A DNA stretch of 24,000 nt from Cellulosilyticaceae bacterium. GTDB lineage: Bacteria; Bacillota; Clostridia; Lachnospirales; Cellulosilyticaceae. A program made the position numbers and the translations under genes. The stretch spans positions 4,161 to 28,160 of the forward strand of contig JBOFDK010000038.1 of assembly GCA_051646925.1 (NCBI GenBank), given 5' to 3'. The notes below the pieces were generated by a model. The model was not told where the DNA came from. It saw nothing but the letters and a program-made list of their open reading frames with translations, and made no database searches. Within the stretch, counting starts at the first letter, position 1. Every line of letters begins with the position of its first letter. Below, in pieces: positions 541 through 24,000 of the stretch.

Positions 541-2169
541 ATGAGGCTTGGAGAGATAATGTTTTTAACAATAGGGGATATATGTACTGGTTTTAAAGAA
601 AGTGATGAGCAGAAAGAAATAGCAAATTATAAATTTGAAAAATTTATAAGGAAATTATTTCAAGAGTATCATATTCAATGGAATAAATTATGTGAACACA
701 TAGGTCCTGAAGTTAATATACCTAAATTAACTAAAGATATTGAAATAGATGATATTGATGAATGTTTAACAGAGATGGATAGGGCAGAGAAGGTGTTCCA
801 TGAATTAATAAAAGAAACAAATGAACAAATAAAATATAAATTATTATTTGAAGAGTATGATTATGAACATATGAAATTAAAACCAAATAATATATTGGAA
901 ATAATAGGATATATTGCGTGTGGGATAATGGTATGTGAAAGTGTAGTGTTATCGATTTTAGCATATGGACAGTTAAAAAAAGAGTTAAGTGATATAGCCT
1001 GTATGTATAACTTTATGCAAGAGGAAATGCAAGAAAATTTTTTAGCTAGTAAGAGTGGTTGTTATAGCAATGATTATGATGAACTGGAGAATAATGCGAA
1101 ACAATACAAAGAACGTCAGATGATTATATGCGATAAATATATTAAAGAAATAGATGATGAAATAAAACAAATCCCAAAAGGAAAAAAAGAAATAATTACT
1201 ATATTAGAAGGTGAAAAGAATAATATTGCTAAAGCAGTTGAATTGAAATGTAAAGAATTTAGTGAATACAGTATAGAAAAAAATAATTTAATGATACAGG
1301 AGCTTAAAAATAAAAATCAACATTATGGAATGTGCTCAGTATATAATAAACAAATAGGAAAAGTGAAAAAACGACTAGCATTAATGAAAGATGAACTAAA
1401 AAACGGAGAGCTAATAAAAATAAGAAAAGATTGTGAAGAGGCAGATATCGGAAAGATTAATATAAAGAAAGAAGTTAAAGGAAAAGAATCTTTTTTTGTA
1501 TGCACAGGGGAAAGGGGACCGGAGGGAGTTGAAGAGCTTAGCTTGATAGATTGTAAATATTTTCCAGAATGTGATGTGATATTAATAGTAGACGATATGA
1601 AAAAACTTGAAGAAAATACAATGCGAATTAATAAACTAAACAAATTTATGAGAGAAACTCAAAATGACATTAATACAGGAATATTAGAAGAAATAAATAA
1701 AATAAAAATAAAATATTCAAGACAAGCAGAATTGGGTATTAAGGAAGGTGATATAAACAATATTAGTGAAGGATATAAAATTTATAAAAAAGAAACATAT
1801 AAATTTAACAGAAGTTATAAAAGTGAAATTATGGAAAAAATAGAAAAGGTTCAAAGGAAAAAAATAATGAAGTGTTTTAGTGATACTGCTACTACATGTA
1901 TTTATACAGTGATTTTTGTTGCTGTAGTTGATATGATGATTGTATTTTTTGAAGCGTTACGTGATTATTACAAAGTAAATGAGAAAAAAAAGCAAATGGA
2001 AGAATTTAAGAGTATATTAGGGGCTACAATGGAAAAAAGTATTTGCGAATTAGCGAAATTAAATCAAAATTTGAGCGATGGTATTATTCAAATTGACAAA
2101 GAACACTTATTAATATTACAAGGAAATCAGGAAGTGCCAGTGGTAGTTAAAATAGAAGATTGCGTTTAA
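541..2169 (+). CDS. Uncharacterised 542-aa K/E-rich coiled-coil protein with two hydrophobic helices
   Basis: The ATG is preceded by GGGGTGA. Two hydrophobic segments, each with an embedded acidic residue, flank a ~310-aa highly charged heptad-like region: ILEIIGYIACGIMVCESVVLSILAYG (~aa 117-142) and CIYTVIFVAVVDMMIVFF (~aa 455-472). There is no signal peptide, Walker motif or recognisable catalytic motif. The C-terminal module is shared with the truncated upstream gene. Confidence 0.8.
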   Translation: MRLGEIMFLTIGDICTGFKESDEQKEIANYKFEKFIRKLFQEYHIQWNKLCEHIGPEVNIPKLTKDIEIDDIDECLTEMDRAEKVFHELIKETNEQIKYKLLFEEYDYEHMKLKPNNILEIIGYIACGIMVCESVVLSILAYGQLKKELSDIACMYNFMQEEMQENFLASKSGCYSNDYDELENNAKQYKERQMIICDKYIKEIDDEIKQIPKGKKEIITILEGEKNNIAKAVELKCKEFSEYSIEKNNLMIQELKNKNQHYGMCSVYNKQIGKVKKRLALMKDELKNGELIKIRKDCEEADIGKINIKKEVKGKESFFVCTGERGPEGVEELSLIDCKYFPECDVILIVDDMKKLEENTMRINKLNKFMRETQNDINTGILEEINKIKIKYSRQAELGIKEGDINNISEGYKIYKKETYKFNRSYKSEIMEKIEKVQRKKIMKCFSDTATTCIYTVIFVAVVDMMIVFFEALRDYYKVNEKKKQMEEFKSILGATMEKSICELAKLNQNLSDGIIQIDKEHLLILQGNQEVPVVVKIEDCV

Positions 2170-6024: not shown

Positions 6025-6477
6025 ATGGAATCGTGGGTAACTATATTACTCGTTTTAGTAATTCTTGCGGGAATTGGTGTAGGGTTATATTTTTGGAGTA
6101 AGAAATTAAAAAAGAAATATGATGAACAACAACAGATGATTAATCAACATAAACAATTAGTTCAGATGTTTGTTATAGATAAGAAAAAAGATACTGTTGA
6201 TAATATGAAGTTGCCAAAACAGATTAAAGAGCAAATTCCAAAGATGCAACGTAAACGTAAAATGCCGTTTGTTATAGTAAAAGCAGGGCCACAAATTCAA
6301 ACACTTCTTTGTGAAAACTCAGTGTATGATACAATACCTGTAAAAAAACAAATTAAAGCAGAAGTTGCAGGAATTATGCTTGTAAATGTTGTATCAGGAA
6401 AACTTCCAACTCCGAAAAAGCAAAAATTTACAGCAAAAATGAAAAATAAAGCAGAGCAATTAAAAAATAAATTATAA
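6025..6477 (+). CDS. Small Lys-rich protein with N-terminal membrane anchor, function unknown
   Basis: RBS AGGGAGGA is followed by an ATG. It has one N-terminal hydrophobic helix (WVTILLVLVILAGIGVGLYFW), then a very basic soluble part. The gene is followed by a clear terminator. Confidence 0.7.
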   Translation: MESWVTILLVLVILAGIGVGLYFWSKKLKKKYDEQQQMINQHKQLVQMFVIDKKKDTVDNMKLPKQIKEQIPKMQRKRKMPFVIVKAGPQIQTLLCENSVYDTIPVKKQIKAEVAGIMLVNVVSGKLPTPKKQKFTAKMKNKAEQLKNKL

Positions 6478-11172: not shown

Positions 11173-11724
<552 letters not shown>

Positions 11725-11738
11725 GCTATAAGCTATAG

Positions 11739-12065
<327 letters not shown>

Positions 12066-14723: not shown

Positions 14724-17007
<2,284 letters not shown>

Positions 17008-17427: not shown

Positions 17428-17472
17428 AAAAAAAAGCTAGTTTTTGCATTATGCAAAAGCTAGCTTTTTTTT
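17428..17472. terminator. Bidirectional rho-independent terminator (atp operon and convergent 17471..17935 gene)
   Basis: An A-run, then stem AGCTAGTTTTTGCAT / ATGCAAAAGCTAGCT (one G-U pair), then a T-run of 8. It sits between the two convergent stop codons. Confidence 0.85.
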
Positions 17473-17935
17473 ATATATTGTAATCAGATTCGTTAAATTC
17501 TAATATAGTTTTAGTATCTGTATCTCTTCCATCAGCGTCAAGCAGAAGGTCACGTTTAAAATGCTCTAGTATTTTATTAAGCAGAGGAAAATACGAAAAA
17601 GAGATAGGGGTAGTCCGGATTCTAAGTGAGAAAACCATTTTGTTAAGTCTAAGAATTTCCTTAATCTCAGATAATGTTTTAGAAACATCTTCTTGTAATA
17701 AACGTATCCTCTTACGTCTCATTAGAGCATCTGCATCCGATAATAAGGTTGATGCAAGTCTTATAGGGGGTTTCTTATAGTTAGAATTATCCAACACAGA
17801 TACTGAATCTCGTAGTGTTCTTAGTCTTTCGATTGTATTTTGTTGTAAATCTTCAGCTAGTAAAAGCTTTGATATAGCTATAGCTTCTCTTACCATGTTA
17901 ATAGATGATGCAGAATAATATTTGATATATACCAT
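17471..17935 (-). CDS. Small all-helical-looking protein of unknown family, paralog A of a three-gene cluster
   Basis: 154 aa. RBS GGAGGCC lies 7 nt before the ATG. The C-terminal motif ILEHFKRDLLLDADGRDTDTKTILEF is shared with the two genes upstream. No TM helix or signal peptide. Confidence 0.7.
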   Translation of the reverse strand: MVYIKYYSASSINMVREAIAISKLLLAEDLQQNTIERLRTLRDSVSVLDNSNYKKPPIRLASTLLSDADALMRRKRIRLLQEDVSKTLSEIKEILRLNKMVFSLRIRTTPISFSYFPLLNKILEHFKRDLLLDADGRDTDTKTILEFNESDYNI

Positions 17936-18030
17936 AATAGGCCTCCATAAAATTTGAGTAGTTATTTAAAATTAAAATATTTATTACTTATAATAAGCTT
18001 TATAAATTTATTTGAATTTTTAAAACACAG

Positions 18031-18071
18031 TATATATATATGCAGGAAAAATAAATGTGAAAGTTGTACTA
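18031..18071 (-). promoter_or_regulatory. Conserved bipartite upstream motif (copy 1), candidate promoter/operator of paralog A
   Basis: On the - strand it reads TAGTACAACTTTCA -14 nt- GCATATATATATA. The same two blocks recur upstream of paralog C at 19093..19133 with 15-nt spacing. It can be read as TTTCA[C/A] -16/17- TATATA. Confidence 0.45.
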
Positions 18072-18105
18072 TGGTTTTAAAAATATTATTTTTAAAGATT
18101 ATTAG

Positions 18106-18594
18106 TTAATCAAACGTTAAAAAAGTTCTCTCAGTTGAATTTCGTCCACGAATGTCAAGGAGAAGCTCTTTTCTTATATGATCTAGTATTTTAATAATCG
18201 TATCAAAATACTCATTAGACTCCTCTGGGTGTTCGTATACGAAGGATAACATAGTTTCAACATTATCTAGTGAGCGAAGGCAGTTAGATACTGAGTAACG
18301 AACTAGTTTTGTAGAACTGCAGAATAAACCACCGTATTTAAAACGATCATGGAGTGTGTCGAAATCTAACAACTGTCTAGGATCTAAAATATTGAGTATA
18401 GAATTTTTTGCGAAGTTAATCGCACGTTCCTTTTCAGGTGTATGATTAAAAAATTTTTGGCAATAATATTTGGAATCTGGAAACAGAGAATGATTTGTAA
18501 AGAAATGGTAATCTAATACGTATAGAATGGCGTTTATATCATCCGTAATTGGATTTGTATTATTTTGTGCATATCTAAAATATCGTTTAGACAT
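18106..18594 (-). CDS. Small protein of unknown family, paralog B
   Basis: 162 aa starting at ATG 18594 (MSKRYFRYAQ..), with AGGAGG 7 nt upstream. The track's start at 18666 would overlap paralog C and lacks an RBS. C-terminal motif is ILDHIRKELLLDIRGRNSTERTFLTFD. Confidence 0.72.
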   Translation of the reverse strand: MSKRYFRYAQNNTNPITDDINAILYVLDYHFFTNHSLFPDSKYYCQKFFNHTPEKERAINFAKNSILNILDPRQLLDFDTLHDRFKYGGLFCSSTKLVRYSVSNCLRSLDNVETMLSFVYEHPEESNEYFDTIIKILDHIRKELLLDIRGRNSTERTFLTFD

Positions 18595-18611
18595 AATAAA
18601 CCTCCTAATTT
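18576..18611 (-). repeat. 36-nt block identical to 19036..19071 (first 6 codons + RBS + proximal leader of paralog B)
   Basis: The + strand string TAAAATATCGTTTAGACATAATAAACCTCCTAATTT is identical at both loci, while the gene bodies are strongly diverged. Confidence 0.9.
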
Positions 18612-18658
18612 GAATAGTATTTGTAAAATTTAATAAAAAAATATTAATGTATTGTGTA

Positions 18659-19054
18659 TTAACCAAACGTTAAATTTGCAAAATTCTTATCGCCCGAATA
18701 TCGTCCTGTTATATCTTTATGAAGCGCCATTCTCATATGCTCCAGTAAGCAAATAATTTTATAAATGGTAAACTCACAATATAAATGGCGAGGTAACGAG
18801 TGTAGTCTAATCTGCATAGCAGCAACTTCTTTTTGTAAATCAAGGCATTTTTCAGCAAGGGGCTCTATTATAGAGCGACTATTAAAACTTTCCATATCTT
18901 CATTATCTAGATGCACGGTTATAGCTTCTAGTATGTCGAATATTCGGTCAAGATTTGGTGCTGGATCTTTGAAGCAGTGTAAATCTATTAAAGATAAAAT
19001 TTTAGTTATAAGAAAATGGTTATCAAAATTGTATTTAAAATATCGTTTAGACAT
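18659..19054 (-). CDS. Small protein of unknown family, paralog C
   Basis: 131 aa, starting MSKRYFKYNF.., with AGGAGG 7 nt upstream of the ATG. C-terminal motif is LLEHMRMALHKDITGRYSGDKNFANLTFG. Confidence 0.72.
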   Translation of the reverse strand: MSKRYFKYNFDNHFLITKILSLIDLHCFKDPAPNLDRIFDILEAITVHLDNEDMESFNSRSIIEPLAEKCLDLQKEVAAMQIRLHSLPRHLYCEFTIYKIICLLEHMRMALHKDITGRYSGDKNFANLTFG

Positions 19055-19071
19055 AATAAACCTCCTAATTT
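19036..19071 (-). repeat. 36-nt block identical to 18576..18611 (start region of paralog C)
   Basis: See 18576..18611. Confidence 0.9.
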
Positions 19072-19092
19072 AATTTGTATTTGTAATGCTTA

Positions 19093-19133
19093 ATATATAT
19101 ATGCTAAGAGGTATTGAATTGAAAGTTGTACTA
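19093..19133 (-). promoter_or_regulatory. Conserved bipartite upstream motif (copy 2), candidate promoter/operator of the paralog C-B unit
   Basis: On the - strand it reads TAGTACAACTTTCA -15 nt- GCATATATATAT, about 40-80 nt upstream of the paralog C ATG. Confidence 0.45.
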
Positions 19134-19167
19134 AAACAATATTAATGTTTTTTTATAGATACTAATA

Positions 19168-19213
19168 AATTTGAAGGTAGAGTATTAACAAGTTAATACT
19201 CTACCTTCAAATT
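19168..19213 (-). terminator. Long perfect hairpin, probable terminator of the DUF3810 gene
   Basis: A 22-bp perfect inverted repeat, AATTTGAAGGTAGAGTATTAAC / GTTAATACTCTACCTTCAAATT, with arms separated by 2 nt. It overlaps the stop codon (19212-19214) and on the - strand is followed by ATTTATT. Confidence 0.6.
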
Positions 19214-20351
19214 AATAATATTTATCATATAGTGCAAGTAAGAGATTCACAACTTCACCATAGTTTGCAGTACCAGATGCAACGCCGTTTGATTTTAGAT
19301 AAGTATCGTTAATTGCAGTAGCAACTTCTTGAATTTCACCCTGGTATTTGTCCCAAAATAAATTAATTGATTCTAGGTCACCAAAAACTTTAGGATTCAT
19401 ATCAGTATTAAGTTCTTTTAGTTTTGTAATATCAATACGCGCAAGTGCATTACTTGTATATGATATTGCTAAAATAAGTCCGGAGTATTGAAAGTCTAAA
19501 TCAGGATTAGACATACAAGCTATAAAAGAAATAAAATTACATTCATTTTCAAAAGCATAACCACGTTGATGTGCCATCTCATGGCAAGTTGTTGAAGGAA
19601 GTGTAAGTAGTGGTACGTTAATATTTATATTAGGTTCTCCTGTAAATGGAGAGTAGATACCTGTAATACCTGTGTATGACAATATTTTTGATGAAAGTAA
19701 TGGCTTTGCTTTTCCGTAAAATCCTTTGAGTGATGGAAACTCTTTGGATATAACTTCAAAGCCTTTTTCAGCGCGGTCAAAAATATCTTTGTAATCACCA
19801 TATGGAGTCATAAGACCATTAGGTGTTTCTGGAAGTTTAGAACGGATACTTGAAGCTTCATCTAAAAGGTGTGAGTATAGTTTGCCTAAATCTTCGGGGC
19901 TATAATTGCCAACTTCTAATCCGTATTGAGTGCTAAAAGGTGGGCGATTGTAGTTTAATCCCCAAAATGTAACGAAAATAAAAATGATAAGACAAGTTAG
20001 ACTAAACATTGTGAGTAAGTAATTAAAAAGTATTATGAATGATTGTTTCCATTTTGGAATAGCGCAAAGTATTTTATAAAATGTAAAAAGGGTAAATATT
20101 ATTAATGTGAATATACATATATATAATAATATTTCTACAACTGAAAAAGGAAAAATATTAAGTGAAATACTAGATAGTTGTATTAGATATTTATTAATAC
20201 CTAGAGAGTAAAATTTTTCCCATGTTTCTGGGTAGAATAAATAAAGTTTATTAAGCAAAATAGCAAGTGGCAAAAGTAGTATAAGTATCATTTTTAGTTT
20301 AATATGCGGAACAATAGATGATTTTTTATTTAAAATATTTAGTGGATGCAT
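19212..20351 (-). CDS. DUF3810-family membrane protein with HExxH zinc-metalloprotease-like motif
   Basis: 379 aa with three N-terminal hydrophobic helices. The soluble domain has GITGIYSPFTGEPNININ and CHEMAHQRGY (HEMAH), matching my recollection of DUF3810 proteins. RBS GTGAGGT. Confidence 0.7.
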   Translation of the reverse strand: MHPLNILNKKSSIVPHIKLKMILILLLPLAILLNKLYLFYPETWEKFYSLGINKYLIQLSSISLNIFPFSVVEILLYICIFTLIIFTLFTFYKILCAIPKWKQSFIILFNYLLTMFSLTCLIIFIFVTFWGLNYNRPPFSTQYGLEVGNYSPEDLGKLYSHLLDEASSIRSKLPETPNGLMTPYGDYKDIFDRAEKGFEVISKEFPSLKGFYGKAKPLLSSKILSYTGITGIYSPFTGEPNININVPLLTLPSTTCHEMAHQRGYAFENECNFISFIACMSNPDLDFQYSGLILAISYTSNALARIDITKLKELNTDMNPKVFGDLESINLFWDKYQGEIQEVATAINDTYLKSNGVASGTANYGEVVNLLLALYDKYY

Positions 20352-20488
20352 TAAAGAAACCTCACTTTATAGTTTTTTAAAATTAAAGAATTAATAGATT
20401 TGTGTCGATAAGAAGTATAGCACTTTGTAATAAAAATAGATAGGTAAGGGCAAATAGAGTGAGCGAGAATTATTATGAAAGGGTTTTG

Positions 20489-23400
20489 ATGATGAGAAAA
20501 AAAATAGCATTAATTTTAGCAATTTTTATATGGAGTAGTATATTTTCGGGAATACAACTAGATGTTTATGCAATGTCTTCTAAAAAGTTAGGTTTAATAG
20601 AACTTAGTCTTAAAGGAGGAAATAATCAAGGTATAAGCACAAATCTTAGTCAAGAGAGGCTAGAGTTAGTAACGCCAGCAGAAAAAGATGAGGCGGCTTT
20701 TAGTTTTCCAATTATGAATGGAAGAGAAGTTAAAGTTGGAACGTACATATTAGAATATTATATACAAGGAAATGAAACATATCGTATAGAGGCTGAGTTT
20801 GAATTTAAATCAGATTATACAGCAGATGTTACTATCAAAATGTTTAAGGAAAATAGTGATAAACCAGAGCAAGTAAAGTTTGTAGAATATAAAGATTATT
20901 ATGGTGATATCAATGATGAAAGTAATGGATTTGAATTTAAAAAGACATTAAAGTTCAAATCAGGTTTAGATACTGAATATGAAAAAGGTCTAAAAGTTAG
21001 TATAGGTGGTTTTGCTCCGATTCAGATGTATGTAGATAGTGACAAAGGGGTATTAAATTTTTCAACAAAAAATATAAATGCAGGACTTATTACACCGTTT
21101 AAACTTATGTATTCGGGTGGTGTTGCAGCAACTGATGAACAAACGATAGATGTTTTTAAAGGACTTGATGATACAATTGTAAAACCAACGCATTTATTAT
21201 CTGAAGAGGAGTCAAAAAACATTTCGCCAGATAATTTAGATAGAACAATTGGATTGCCATCGCTTGAGCTTATAGATATAGAAGAAAATCGAATAGATGG
21301 AACGAATTTTAAATATGGTGAACCAGGAACTAGACCAGGGGTAGTTGTTCAAATTACAACACCTAAAAAAATCAAAGATGGTAAGTTTGTACTGCTTGAT
21401 GATGTAGACGGTAGTAGTGAACTAATTAATGTTAAATTGACATTAACTAATCCGTATGAGACAGGGCTACCTCTTACTGTGAAGTTTCCGTTAAAAAGTG
21501 GAGAGCCAGTCGTAGGTTTTGGCGTGCAAAATGGTGTTGTAGGTATACATGATGGAAAATATGAAGTGTATATTTCACAAGATAACTATACGGGTATTAC
21601 AGAAAAAGAAGCAATAGAGAAAAAGATTGCAAAAGAGTGTATATGGAAAGAGATTGCAAAAGCAGAGATTTATCATACAGAGTTAGAACTAGATGGTGAA
21701 GTATTAGCTAATACGAATACTTTATCTCGTAGTTATTCAACGGATTTAGGATATACATACGTTAAATACGGAGTGGAAAAAACGAGTGAAACATCTATTA
21801 CATTTAATATAGAGCCGTATAAAATTCAGCAAGAAGGAACAATTACTTATATTTTAACTAGAAATGGCAAAGAAATAGAGCGGCGTACATATTCACCTGG
21901 TGATAACGTTAGTATTACAACTAATTTAAAAGCAGTAGATGACGTGTATCAGATAGAAGTACTTAGAGCAAGTGATGGAAAGGAAGTATCGTACAAATCA
22001 CAAAAAATACGTGTTGATGCACAGATTTTTGGAGAGCTTACGCCTATTCAAACAAATGAAATCATTAGTATAGATAACATATGGGTTATTCCCAACAGAA
22101 ATATAAATGCTAATGAAGGGCAAGTAGCACCTGATTCAGTAATGTTTGATTTGCAGTGGAGAGCTCCTGCAAATTTAGTTAATACTATACTAAAATCGGA
22201 AAAAGATGCGATTTATTATGAATTAGAAATAAGTGATAAATTAGACGGAATATATAATTTAAATACGATTTTTAAAGTTGTTAAAGAAAACCAAAACAAT
22301 ATAGGTGTTTATTTATATGATAAAAATTATTCAGATGAAGCACCAAAAAAAGGATATTATGATGCAGCAACAAATACTTTTTCGTTTAAAGAAGTAGTTA
22401 TTAAACGTCCATCAAAAAATATTGAAAATGAAGCTGAAAAAGATAAATGGCAAAAAATAGAGATGCCAAAAGATTATGAGAATTTATATTCATATCCAGA
22501 TGCAAAAAATGATATTAGTTTTGAAGATAGTTTGGAATATACAGTACCAAATGTGTTTTATTTTAGAATGCGTAATTTTTATGTTAAAGATGGATATAAA
22601 GGAATGGCGAAAAGTGGATATTCGGTATCGAAACCAGTTACGTTAGATATTACGAATTTTTTAATTCCACCAGTTACGAACGTAAGGAAGCTAGATTTGA
22701 CAGACGAGGAAAGTAAATTATTTGGTAAATATAGCTGGAAAATAGGCTATGAAGGTATTAGCCTTGAAAAATATAAGAAATATTTATTAGAGCCATTAGG
22801 TATTGTACTAAATGAAAAAGATGAAGATGCATTGACACGTGTTTATAGCACGTATTTATACAATGCAACGAGTAATATTGAAGAAGTATTTAAAGAACTT
22901 AGTAAAGAAGATATGGAAGATGAAGAAATAGAACCGGTAAAACGTTTTGTATTAGCGAGTGAGTATGAAGAAAGTAAACATAGCACATACAATGGAATTA
23001 TTTATGACGGAAATAATTCTGAAGGTGCGTATGATTTAACAAAACGCATTAATGAAAAAACTAGTAAAACGTATCAAGACTATATTAGAGAAAATGGTGT
23101 TGTAAGGTTTGATACATATTCAGACATAGACAAGACAGATACATTTACTCCGCAAGAAACGATTTTATTTACAGGTCTTGAACCAAACACGCCATATGCA
23201 GTACAAATTCGTGTTCAAGTTGAAAGGTATAAAAAAGAAGATAGTAAGTGGGAAAGAATTAAACCAAATGTGTATTCTGTTTTTTCAAAAATATTAACGT
23301 ATACGACAACTACAGAGCCAATGCCACCAACGCCTGATGAGCAAAAGCCGATGCCACCAACAAATTTTTGGGAAGAGATAGAGGCAAAGGGCAAAACAAC

Positions 23401-24000
23401 TGCTGTGCTTGCATGGGAAGAGAGTGAATTTGCAAAAACAATTCAAGACCCTGAAAATGTAATATATGAGTTAGTTAGAGTTAAAGATAAAGAGTTAGAT
23501 AGTGAGTTAAATCAAAAAAATGTATTACTAGATACAATTAAGAAAAAAGATAATCATTTTGTTTATGAAGCGTTTCCAAAACGAAATGAAGATGATAAAG
23601 ATGCAGTAGTTAAACGTTCAAATGGGAAAACAGGAAAAGTGGATACATTTGAATTGTGGCAACATGGTGATGTACTAAGTTTTGAAGATACTGAGTTATT
23701 GCCAAATACAATTTATTATTACTATATAAGAACAGTTTATAAGACAAGTGATGAACGGTCACAATTTATAATGTTGCCAGTGACTACGGATACGCTGGGC
23801 AATCCAATTAATTTAACTGTAGAATCTTTGAAAGACTACCAAGTAGATAATGAAGCACATGAGGCAGTAGTTAGTTTTTGGGCACCAGTACCAGAGGGAT
23901 TTGATGTTAGGGATGGGAAAACATATGACTTTGAAATTGCTATTAGAGGAGATAACGATGAGCAGTTTTATATTGCAAATGTAGATAAAGAAAGGCCGTA
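20489..24000 (+). CDS. Very large secreted/cell-surface protein with FN3-like modules (3' end outside the window)
   Basis: I hand-translated the frame from ATG 20489 to the window end (1170 codons) and found no stop. The signal peptide is MMRKKIALILAIFIWSSIFSGIQLDVYA. FN3-like signatures: DLQWRAP, LEPNTPYAVQIRV, LLPNTIYYYYIRTVY. There is a Pro-rich linker, EPMPPTPDEQKPMPPT. The ORF is missing from the supplied track, presumably because it has no stop in the window. Confidence 0.85.
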   Translation, partial: MMRKKIALILAIFIWSSIFSGIQLDVYAMSSKKLGLIELSLKGGNNQGISTNLSQERLELVTPAEKDEAAFSFPIMNGREVKVGTYILEYYIQGNETYRIEAEFEFKSDYTADVTIKMFKENSDKPEQVKFVEYKDYYGDINDESNGFEFKKTLKFKSGLDTEYEKGLKVSIGGFAPIQMYVDSDKGVLNFSTKNINAGLITPFKLMYSGGVAATDEQTIDVFKGLDDTIVKPTHLLSEEESKNISPDNLDRTIGLPSLELIDIEENRIDGTNFKYGEPGTRPGVVVQITTPKKIKDGKFVLLDDVDGSSELINVKLTLTNPYETGLPLTVKFPLKSGEPVVGFGVQNGVVGIHDGKYEVYISQDNYTGITEKEAIEKKIAKECIWKEIAKAEIYHTELELDGEVLANTNTLSRSYSTDLGYTYVKYGVEKTSETSITFNIEPYKIQQEGTITYILTRNGKEIERRTYSPGDNVSITTNLKAVDDVYQIEVLRASDGKEVSYKSQKIRVDAQIFGELTPIQTNEIISIDNIWVIPNRNINANEGQVAPDSVMFDLQWRAPANLVNTILKSEKDAIYYELEISDKLDGIYNLNTIFKVVKENQNNIGVYLYDKNYSDEAPKKGYYDAATNTFSFKEVVIKRPSKNIENEAEKDKWQKIEMPKDYENLYSYPDAKNDISFEDSLEYTVPNVFYFRMRNFYVKDGYKGMAKSGYSVSKPVTLDITNFLIPPVTNVRKLDLTDEESKLFGKYSWKIGYEGISLEKYKKYLLEPLGIVLNEKDEDALTRVYSTYLYNATSNIEEVFKELSKEDMEDEEIEPVKRFVLASEYEESKHSTYNGIIYDGNNSEGAYDLTKRINEKTSKTYQDYIRENGVVRFDTYSDIDKTDTFTPQETILFTGLEPNTPYAVQIRVQVERYKKEDSKWERIKPNVYSVFSKILTYTTTTEPMPPTPDEQKPMPPTNFWEEIEAKGKTTAVLAWEESEFAKTIQDPENVIYELVRVKDKELDSELNQKNVLLDTIKKKDNHFVYEAFPKRNEDDKDAVVKRSNGKTGKVDTFELWQHGDVLSFEDTELLPNTIYYYYIRTVYKTSDERSQFIMLPVTTDTLGNPINLTVESLKDYQVDNEAHEAVVSFWAPVPEGFDVRDGKTYDFEIAIRGDNDEQFYIANVDKERP

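Follow-up and report, generated by a model that had tools for sequence, protein, structure and literature searches.

The three genes and their origin

The minus strand of the 24-kb stretch of DNA analysed here (the window), part of an 88.5-kb contig in the metagenome-assembled genome (MAG) of an uncultured Cellulosilyticaceae bacterium, carries a tandem cluster of three small genes, which we name A, B and C in 5' to 3' order along that strand and for which we set out the evidence on origin, relatives and possible function. Gene A (18659..19054, -) encodes a protein of 131 amino acids (aa), MSKRYFKY...LTFG (NCBI MGL4362126.1, ACRCSG_02470); gene B (18106..18594, -) encodes one of 162 aa, MSKRYFRY...LTFD (MGL4362125.1, ACRCSG_02465); and gene C (17471..17935, -) one of 154 aa, MVYIKYY...SDYNI (MGL4362124.1, ACRCSG_02460). 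All three entries are hypothetical proteins of the MAG, each of them a singleton cluster. A preliminary description of this DNA had placed three minus-strand open reading frames (ORFs) with strong Shine-Dalgarno sites here, and the ORF list agrees, with AGGAGG at 19061..19066 for A, AGGAGG at 18601..18606 for B and GGAGG at 17942..17946 for C, each 6 nt ahead of its ATG. The lengths it gave, 154, 162 and 131 aa, are right but follow map order rather than the order of the N-termini quoted with them: MSKRYFKY belongs to the protein of 131 aa, MSKRYFRY to that of 162 and MVYIKYY to that of 154. The mechanical ORF of gene B extends to a TTG at 18666, and the ATG at 18594, with its perfect AGGAGG, is the likely start.

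Two hairpin terminators with 20-bp stems, which the same description had recognised as strong, enclose the cluster, and both were recovered in a terminator scan that found six terminator-like sites against 0.6 expected. The one at 19168..19213 (inverted repeat I2) ends the DUF3810 gene and forms the upstream border, while the one at 17428..17472 (inverted repeat I1) is a two-way terminator common to gene C and the convergent atpC. The cluster had also been called more AT-rich than the atp operon, which is true (~30-32% GC against 35-42%), but its GC content is ordinary for the rest of the window (26-35%).

A, B and C are genuine protein-coding genes. In 2000 dinucleotide-preserving shuffles of 17471..19054 (29.7% GC) the longest ORF averaged 57 aa; an ORF of at least 131 aa appeared in a single shuffle and three such ORFs in none. 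A codon log-likelihood, for which the window's other genes served as training set, is above zero for the three only in their annotated frames, at 0.24-0.32 bits per codon, and mostly negative in the other frames, and GC content falls across the codon positions (GC1>GC2>GC3) as it does in neighbouring genes. A 102-aa plus-strand ORF antisense to A has a negative codon score and is taken as spurious.

The trio arose by tandem duplication of one unit made up of a promoter-like box, a leader and a gene. Between the three units, DNA alignments are restricted to the 5' and 3' ends. At the 5' end, which includes the upstream box, the leader and the first codons, identity is 84% over 76 nt for A and B, 68% over 128 nt for A and C (E=1e-13) and 67% over 69 nt for B and C, and at the 3' end, which encodes a C-terminal helix motif, it is 65% over 107 nt for A and B and 68% over 94 nt for B and C. 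Because the units can be aligned at both ends, regulatory region included, the whole unit of promoter, leader and gene was duplicated twice. Protein comparisons likewise give statistical support to the paralogy of the trio through B: BLASTP aligns A and B over their full length with 26% identity (E=4e-5) and B and C over the last 34 residues only (E=4e-7), and finds no significant similarity between A and C. The helix motif, written as [ILVM]L[ED]H[FIMLV][KR]..L..D..GR, matches A, B and C alone in a six-frame translation of the window.

Between the conserved ends the genes have diverged to saturation, with third-position identities of 0.32-0.45 in the middles against ~0.32 expected from composition. 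The preliminary description, which saw middles diverged almost beyond recognition next to a preserved C-terminal motif, was accurate on both counts, the motif matching exactly in all three; its term "fast-evolving" is harder to keep, as fast evolution is not separable from great age of the duplicates when synonymous sites in the middles are saturated and there is no orthologue for a rate test. All three frames have nevertheless stayed open through this divergence, which is our best argument that the proteins are in use. In the last 32 codons of A and B, identity is 0.70 at the first and second codon positions against 0.50 at the third, which reads as the pattern of selection on the protein.

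A second kind of conservation is seen at the 5' ends of A and B (19032..19107 compared with 18572..18647, -), where 35 nt are perfectly identical across the ribosome-binding site and codons 1 to 6 and the similarity then falls abruptly to noise. Gene conversion appears to be the simplest reading of this identity, since no RNA structure or Rfam family accounts for it: Rfam matched only terminator hairpins, below the gathering score, with no riboswitch or known RNA element in the leaders, and the leader fold z-scores of -1.3, -1.35 and +0.9 give no stable conserved structure. The aromatic and basic N-terminus that had been described as common to all three proteins is well founded for A and B only; in C the likeness is weak and is spelled with other codons. 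Within the leader of C, at 17969..18010 (-), the ribosome-binding site, ATG and first codons of A and B survive in decayed form, recognised as repeat family D1 and in the A-C upstream alignment, with ATAAAG in place of AGGAGG and ATA in place of ATG. This remnant is 56 nt ahead of the ATG of C and out of frame with it, so the N-terminus of C is not the codon-for-codon heir of the MSKRYF start. The start site has been replaced in this one paralog.

Upstream of A, a promoter-like pair of boxes at 19093..19133 (-) consists of TAGTACAACTTTCA (19120..19133), 15 nt and GCATATATATAT (19093..19104), and is followed by the leader of A (19055..19092, -). The corresponding pair upstream of C at 18032..18071 (-) consists of TAGTACAACTTTCA (18058..18071), 14 nt and GCATATATATAT (18032..18043). 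Over 24 kb the combination of the 14-nt TAGTACAACTTTCA and, 14 or 15 nt further on, GCATATATATAT is found at exactly two sites, ahead of A and of C, against none expected, and it is absent from ten related loci and from viral contigs. Both boxes are perfectly conserved between the copies while the surrounding DNA is only 55-70% alike, which suggests a function for them as promoter or operator elements. The 64-nt spacer between A and B (18595..18658, -) is homologous to the leader of A and keeps its AGGAGG, but its GCATATATATAT box has decayed, and the terminator scan found no terminator-like site there; the short gap, the decay of the box and the lack of a terminator make it probable that A and B share a transcript.

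Predicted proteins and the search for relatives

The three proteins are predicted to be soluble, with a grand average of hydropathy (GRAVY) of -0.14 to -0.49 and a maximum Kyte-Doolittle 19-residue mean of 1.07, and no transmembrane segment or signal peptide was found in any of them, so that they are presumably cytoplasmic. The isoelectric point (pI) is 6.3-6.4 in A and B, which are mildly acidic, and 9.3 in the basic C. There is no conserved cluster of Cys or His (C contains one His and no Cys), and regular-expression searches found no WxG, SQELD, ExxH or CxxC in A, B or C. On these points the hydropathy scan and the motif searches agree with the preliminary description, which had reported no transmembrane segment, Cys cluster, SQELD or WXG. 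Its statement that the HEPN motif Rx4-6H is lacking needs a small correction, in that A contains one chance match (RLHSLPRH), which is not conserved in B or C. Judged by sequence, A, B and C have no recognisable catalytic motif.

An AlphaFold run on an alignment of only the three paralogs modelled A as four helices (residues 11-27, 35-50, 60-84 and 94-119), with a predicted local distance difference test score (pLDDT) of 61 and a predicted template modelling score (pTM) of 0.60, and B as the same four long helices with two short ones inserted (pLDDT 58, pTM 0.54). The N- and C-terminal tails are unstructured in both models, the C-terminal tail with pLDDT below 50. The models suggest, at low confidence, an all-alpha fold resembling a four-helix bundle, and as a prediction the helical multi-copy family of the preliminary description stands. 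The structural comparison that it had proposed was made for A and B: Foldseek found no match in the PDB or BFVD with an E-value under 0.18, and its best-ranked matches were generic or designed helical bundles and ferritins at a root-mean-square deviation (rmsd) of ~16-20 A, with the ferritins at E>=0.34 and TM scores of 0.2-0.45.

In public data, the family has only three detectable members. Profiles of Pfam and NCBIfam gave no family at E<=1 for any of the three proteins, PADLOC gave none at E<=10, and PHROGs gave noise only, at E=0.34 and 0.61, for A. PDB sequences searched with a family profile yielded no relative, and neither did a word-index search among 5.8 billion proteins, made for B and for the family profile, scans of genome, viral and metagenome DNA collections with back-translated patterns, or tblastn with B against phage and plasmid records. 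When 1.84 billion representatives were searched exhaustively with an HMMER profile, A, B and C alone were returned at E<=0.001, a cut-off above which a relative that retained only the 30-residue motif would fall. The absence of a recognisable family, which had been noted by eye and for which a search with profile hidden Markov models had been advised, is thus upheld by profile, sequence and fold searches alike.

How much this orphan status means depends on how well the lineage has been sampled. At E<=1e-60 there are 603 relatives of the neighbouring DUF3810 protein, the best of them 62% identical, and since no match is closer, the lineage has no closely sampled relative. Nearer named relatives of that protein, at 48-60% identity, include Cellulosilyticaceae MAGs, Niameybacter and Epulopiscium-group genomes, and a DNA scan added Holtiella as a relative at the DUF3810 locus. 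With the nearest relative at ~60% identity in DUF3810, the isolation of A, B and C partly reflects sparse sampling, for when a conserved membrane protein retains 60% identity a small, weakly constrained helical protein is expected to be unrecognisable at the same distance.

Possible functions

We give a probability of about one half to the reading in which A, B and C are a real tandem-duplicated trio of co-regulated, non-enzymatic proteins, predicted to act by binding, that combine a conserved scaffold with variable helices. One transcript from the box upstream of A would cover A and B, and another would cover C, from its own copy of that box; a single kind of box ahead of both A and C would mean that all three genes are switched on together by the factor that reads it. 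The conserved last helix would serve as the common scaffold, with L104 and L111 (A numbering), a heptad apart, facing the core, and with D114-x-x-G117-R118 forming the C-cap, where G117 would mark the end of the helix and D114 and R118 would make an i/i+4 salt bridge. If the leucines belong to the core and the remaining positions to a cap and a salt bridge, the conserved motif looks structural rather than catalytic. In an up-down four-helix bundle, the aromatic N-terminal tail and the L/F-T/E-F C-terminal tail would emerge at one and the same end, and the saturated helices 1 to 3 would carry whatever differs between the copies. From a conserved scaffold with three variable helices one would expect action by binding, to a protein partner or to each other, and not catalysis.

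Several observations weigh against this reading. Its functional part is inferred, with no partner gene in the window and no orthologue found. In the C-terminal block of B and C, third positions are more alike (0.72) than first and second positions (0.59; n=32), so that part of what we call the conserved motif could be the product of gene conversion and not of selection on the protein. The codon bias of the three genes, at 0.24-0.32 bits per codon, is weaker than the 0.45-0.99 of their neighbours, which fits genes that are young, weakly expressed or weakly constrained. The predicted four-helix topology is provisional, given pLDDT values of 58-61 from a three-sequence alignment, and the shared box fits no one sigma class clearly.

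As a class, the genes most resemble the lineage-restricted (ORFan) tandem paralog families, which likewise are found in one genome only, are short, AT-rich and weak in codon bias, and lie as local duplicates in a variable slot. The one thing that sets the trio apart from that general class is a clear mosaic, in which the DNA of the 5' regulatory and start region and of the 3' motif is conserved and the middle is saturated. One might see in the trio a specificity system born within the lineage, in which the ends are kept alike by gene conversion as recombination arms while the middle helices diversify under selection, the products being cassette-like binders of the immunity or decoy kind with an undescribed fold and family; we regard this scheme as improbable.

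The preliminary description had leaned towards immunity, antitoxin, anti-defence or decoy proteins, and this suggestion has no positive support: there is no toxin, bacteriocin, secretion, defence or mobile-element gene in 24 kb, no PADLOC or PHROG match, and the GC content gives no sign of foreign origin. In its most specific form, that each paralog binds and neutralises a different toxin or bacteriocin variant, we consider it unlikely, even though small, soluble proteins with four predicted helices, a flexible C-terminal tail and no enzymatic motif, encoded by diverged tandem copies that vary in the middle and are conserved at the ends, are much what one would expect of such antidotes. Class IIa bacteriocin immunity proteins (EntA_Immun/PedB) are small soluble four-helix bundles with a flexible C-terminal tail, low conservation and orphan copies in Firmicutes, and A, B and C resemble them in being small (~100-150 aa), soluble and little conserved in sequence, and perhaps in the fold that the low-confidence models suggest, a likeness that serves as a lead only. 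They differ in that no Pfam family, immunity families included, matches at E<=1, no solved immunity protein is among the top 50 Foldseek matches, and the window contains no bacteriocin, ABC (ATP-binding cassette) exporter or other transporter, or mannose-phosphotransferase system gene. The orphan immunity arrays of polymorphic toxins (type VII secretion system (T7SS)/LXG, Rhs and contact-dependent inhibition (CDI)) are similar in being tandem, strongly diverged, small and, by prediction, cytoplasmic, but here there is no T7SS, Rhs/LXG or other toxin or secretion gene in the window and no domain of the Imm, SUKH or DUF600 type, the cluster's neighbours being the atp operon, the DUF3810 protein and a large secreted protein with a faint Pur_ac_phosph_N match. 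Immunity families, moreover, usually spread between genomes, whereas the trio shows no horizontal spread and has no relative among the 1.84 billion representatives.

The shared box bears on a further alternative, that the three are sporulation proteins of the mother cell, either lineage-specific coat proteins or regulators, expressed by sigma-E or sigma-K from the -10-like GCATATATA, which is present twice in the window. Coat proteins tend to be small and confined to one lineage, and often have paralogs, as is the case for A, B and C; the -35 and -10 elements of sigma-E and sigma-K promoters are separated by 16-17 nt in B. subtilis. In C. difficile the mother-cell -10 elements are CATATTAT and CATATAAT, and the -35 elements are ATA with sigma-E and AC with sigma-K (PMC3789822). 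The -10-like GCATATATATAT resembles these -10 elements, but its last two positions are TA and not AT, and neither copy of the box has a fitting ATA or AC at the B. subtilis spacing, the conserved ACAAC lying 20-21 nt upstream of CATA. A weak sigma-A promoter, read as TTTCAA or TTTCAC, 16-18 nt and TATATA, would be equally possible; a sigma-A scan, whose counts equalled those of shuffles, did not flag the box. All told, a sporulation role seems quite doubtful. A promoter of the extracytoplasmic function (ECF) type, with its AAC...CGT consensus, was rejected for want of a CGT at the right distance from the box.

The C-terminal motif, extended as L..D..GR.[ST]..[KR]T.L.F, looks like a hydrophobic helix, a glycine turn and a helix with a polar start, with basic residues flanking the turn, and A, B and C might on this ground be small DNA-binding regulators in which the helix-GR turn-helix forms a head like a helix-turn-helix (HTH) and the variable bundle a module for sensing or dimerisation. 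We hold this to be a poor fit: no HTH family of Pfam or NCBIfam was found at E<=1, A and B have just 9-12 residues beyond the turn, the tail that would form the second helix is unstructured in the AlphaFold models, and A and B are mildly acidic. Like Spo0E-like phosphatases and other small helical regulators of Firmicutes, A, B and C are small, predicted helical, multi-copy and without signal peptide or transmembrane segment, but they have neither SQELD nor a Pfam match, and Spo0E-type proteins are shorter, A, B and C being two to three times longer. They are also unlike WXG100 substrates of the T7SS, which are helical hairpins of ~100 aa, in having no WxG, 131-162 aa and four or more predicted helices; unlike HEPN proteins, in that Rx4-6H is not conserved across the three; and unlike ferritin-like and Coat F four-helix proteins, in having no paired ExxH, C having a single His.

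Finally, that the ORFs have no maintained function, as annotation artefacts, decaying duplicates or very young unselected genes, is very unlikely, for although no homologue was found anywhere searched, codon bias is weak, the structure models are of low confidence and one of the start sites has by now been lost to decay and another taken its place, three frames of 131-162 codons in DNA of 30% GC exceed chance, they have remained open through saturating divergence behind strong ribosome-binding sites, the C-terminal block of A and B has the pattern of selection on the protein, and NCBI annotation called all three as genes.

The trio is new only in the sense in which any lineage-restricted hypothetical family is new, and nothing indicates a new kind of system. 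Families confined to one lineage are common in poorly sampled bacteria, so that this one is not surprising to a specialist and opens no long-standing question; what it mainly illustrates is how much of the label "orphan" stems from sampling. Should a defined partner exist, A, B and C would found a new family of small proteins and would show in compact form paralogs whose ends are homogenised and whose middle is diversified.

The variable slot and other genes of the window

The slot that the cluster fills, flanked by the DUF3810 gene and the atp operon, is a variable one. In relatives the flanks are kept, with a large secreted protein encoded divergently from the DUF3810 gene; atpC-atpD follows a few kb beyond DUF3810 in three of the genomes, those of Holtiella, Niameybacter and UMGS1389. 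Between these flanks the relatives carry genes for YkuD, LemA, TPM and/or a BadF-type ATPase, and the gene content downstream of DUF3810 differs among all groups of relatives examined. A BadF/BcrAD-type ATPase gene stands between DUF3810 and atpC in Holtiella (locus L003, 11669..13233), Niameybacter (L004, 11468..12451) and UMGS1389 (L005, 11459..12430), and was probably the ancestral filling of the slot; that of Holtiella contains, in addition, an ORF of 126 aa. Searches for homologues of A, B and C in the ten related loci (L001-L010), by tblastn and by hmmsearch on six-frame ORFs, gave noise only, the two 10-bit matches being on the wrong strand or inside atpD. The idea that the cluster was built on a decayed BadF-type, YkuD or 126-aa gene was dropped, as neither tblastn nor blastn gave a signal for these in the window.

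Marks of a mobile element were likewise absent. The cluster contains no ORF of the size of an integrase or transposase, nothing like a phage, plasmid or transposon adjoins it, and its GC content of ~30-32%, ordinary for the window, gives no compositional sign of foreign origin. A 16-nt inverted repeat at 17501-17516 and 19129-19144 was considered as the ends of an element and set aside, repeats of this kind being at chance level in AT-rich DNA (about one expected by our own estimate).

The DUF3810 gene (19212..20351, -; Pfam E=2e-98) encodes a protein with several hydrophobic segments followed by HEMAH, an HExxH motif like that of zinc proteases. Divergent from it, at 20486..24000 (+) and running off the end of the window, is the gene for a secreted protein exceeding 1171 aa, whose N-terminus resembles a signal peptide and whose only match, to Pur_ac_phosph_N, is below threshold. 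In two of the relatives (L007 and L010) proteins of 1450-1700 aa with faint fn3/Pur_ac_phosph_N matches are encoded in the same position, divergent from DUF3810, and are counterparts by position. Elsewhere in the window, 541..2169 (+) and 6025..6477 (+) encode proteins of 542 and 150 aa that have no Pfam match at E<=0.001.

The mechanical ORF of atpD (15496..17007, +) begins at a TTG that overlaps atpG, and comparison with AtpD of Holtiella points to the ATG at 15616 as the likely start. The atp operon also contains two genes for the c subunit. The first (11176..11724, +) encodes a c subunit of 182 aa that is duplicated and fused; of its two ATP-synt_C hairpins the first has ...AVAETSG and the second ...AVAQTTG, where Gln replaces the carboxylate. 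The second (11781..12065, +) encodes an ordinary c subunit of 94 aa with AVAETTG, and this arrangement is similar to that in the Na+ F-ATP synthase of Acetobacterium woodii, which has a hybrid c ring.

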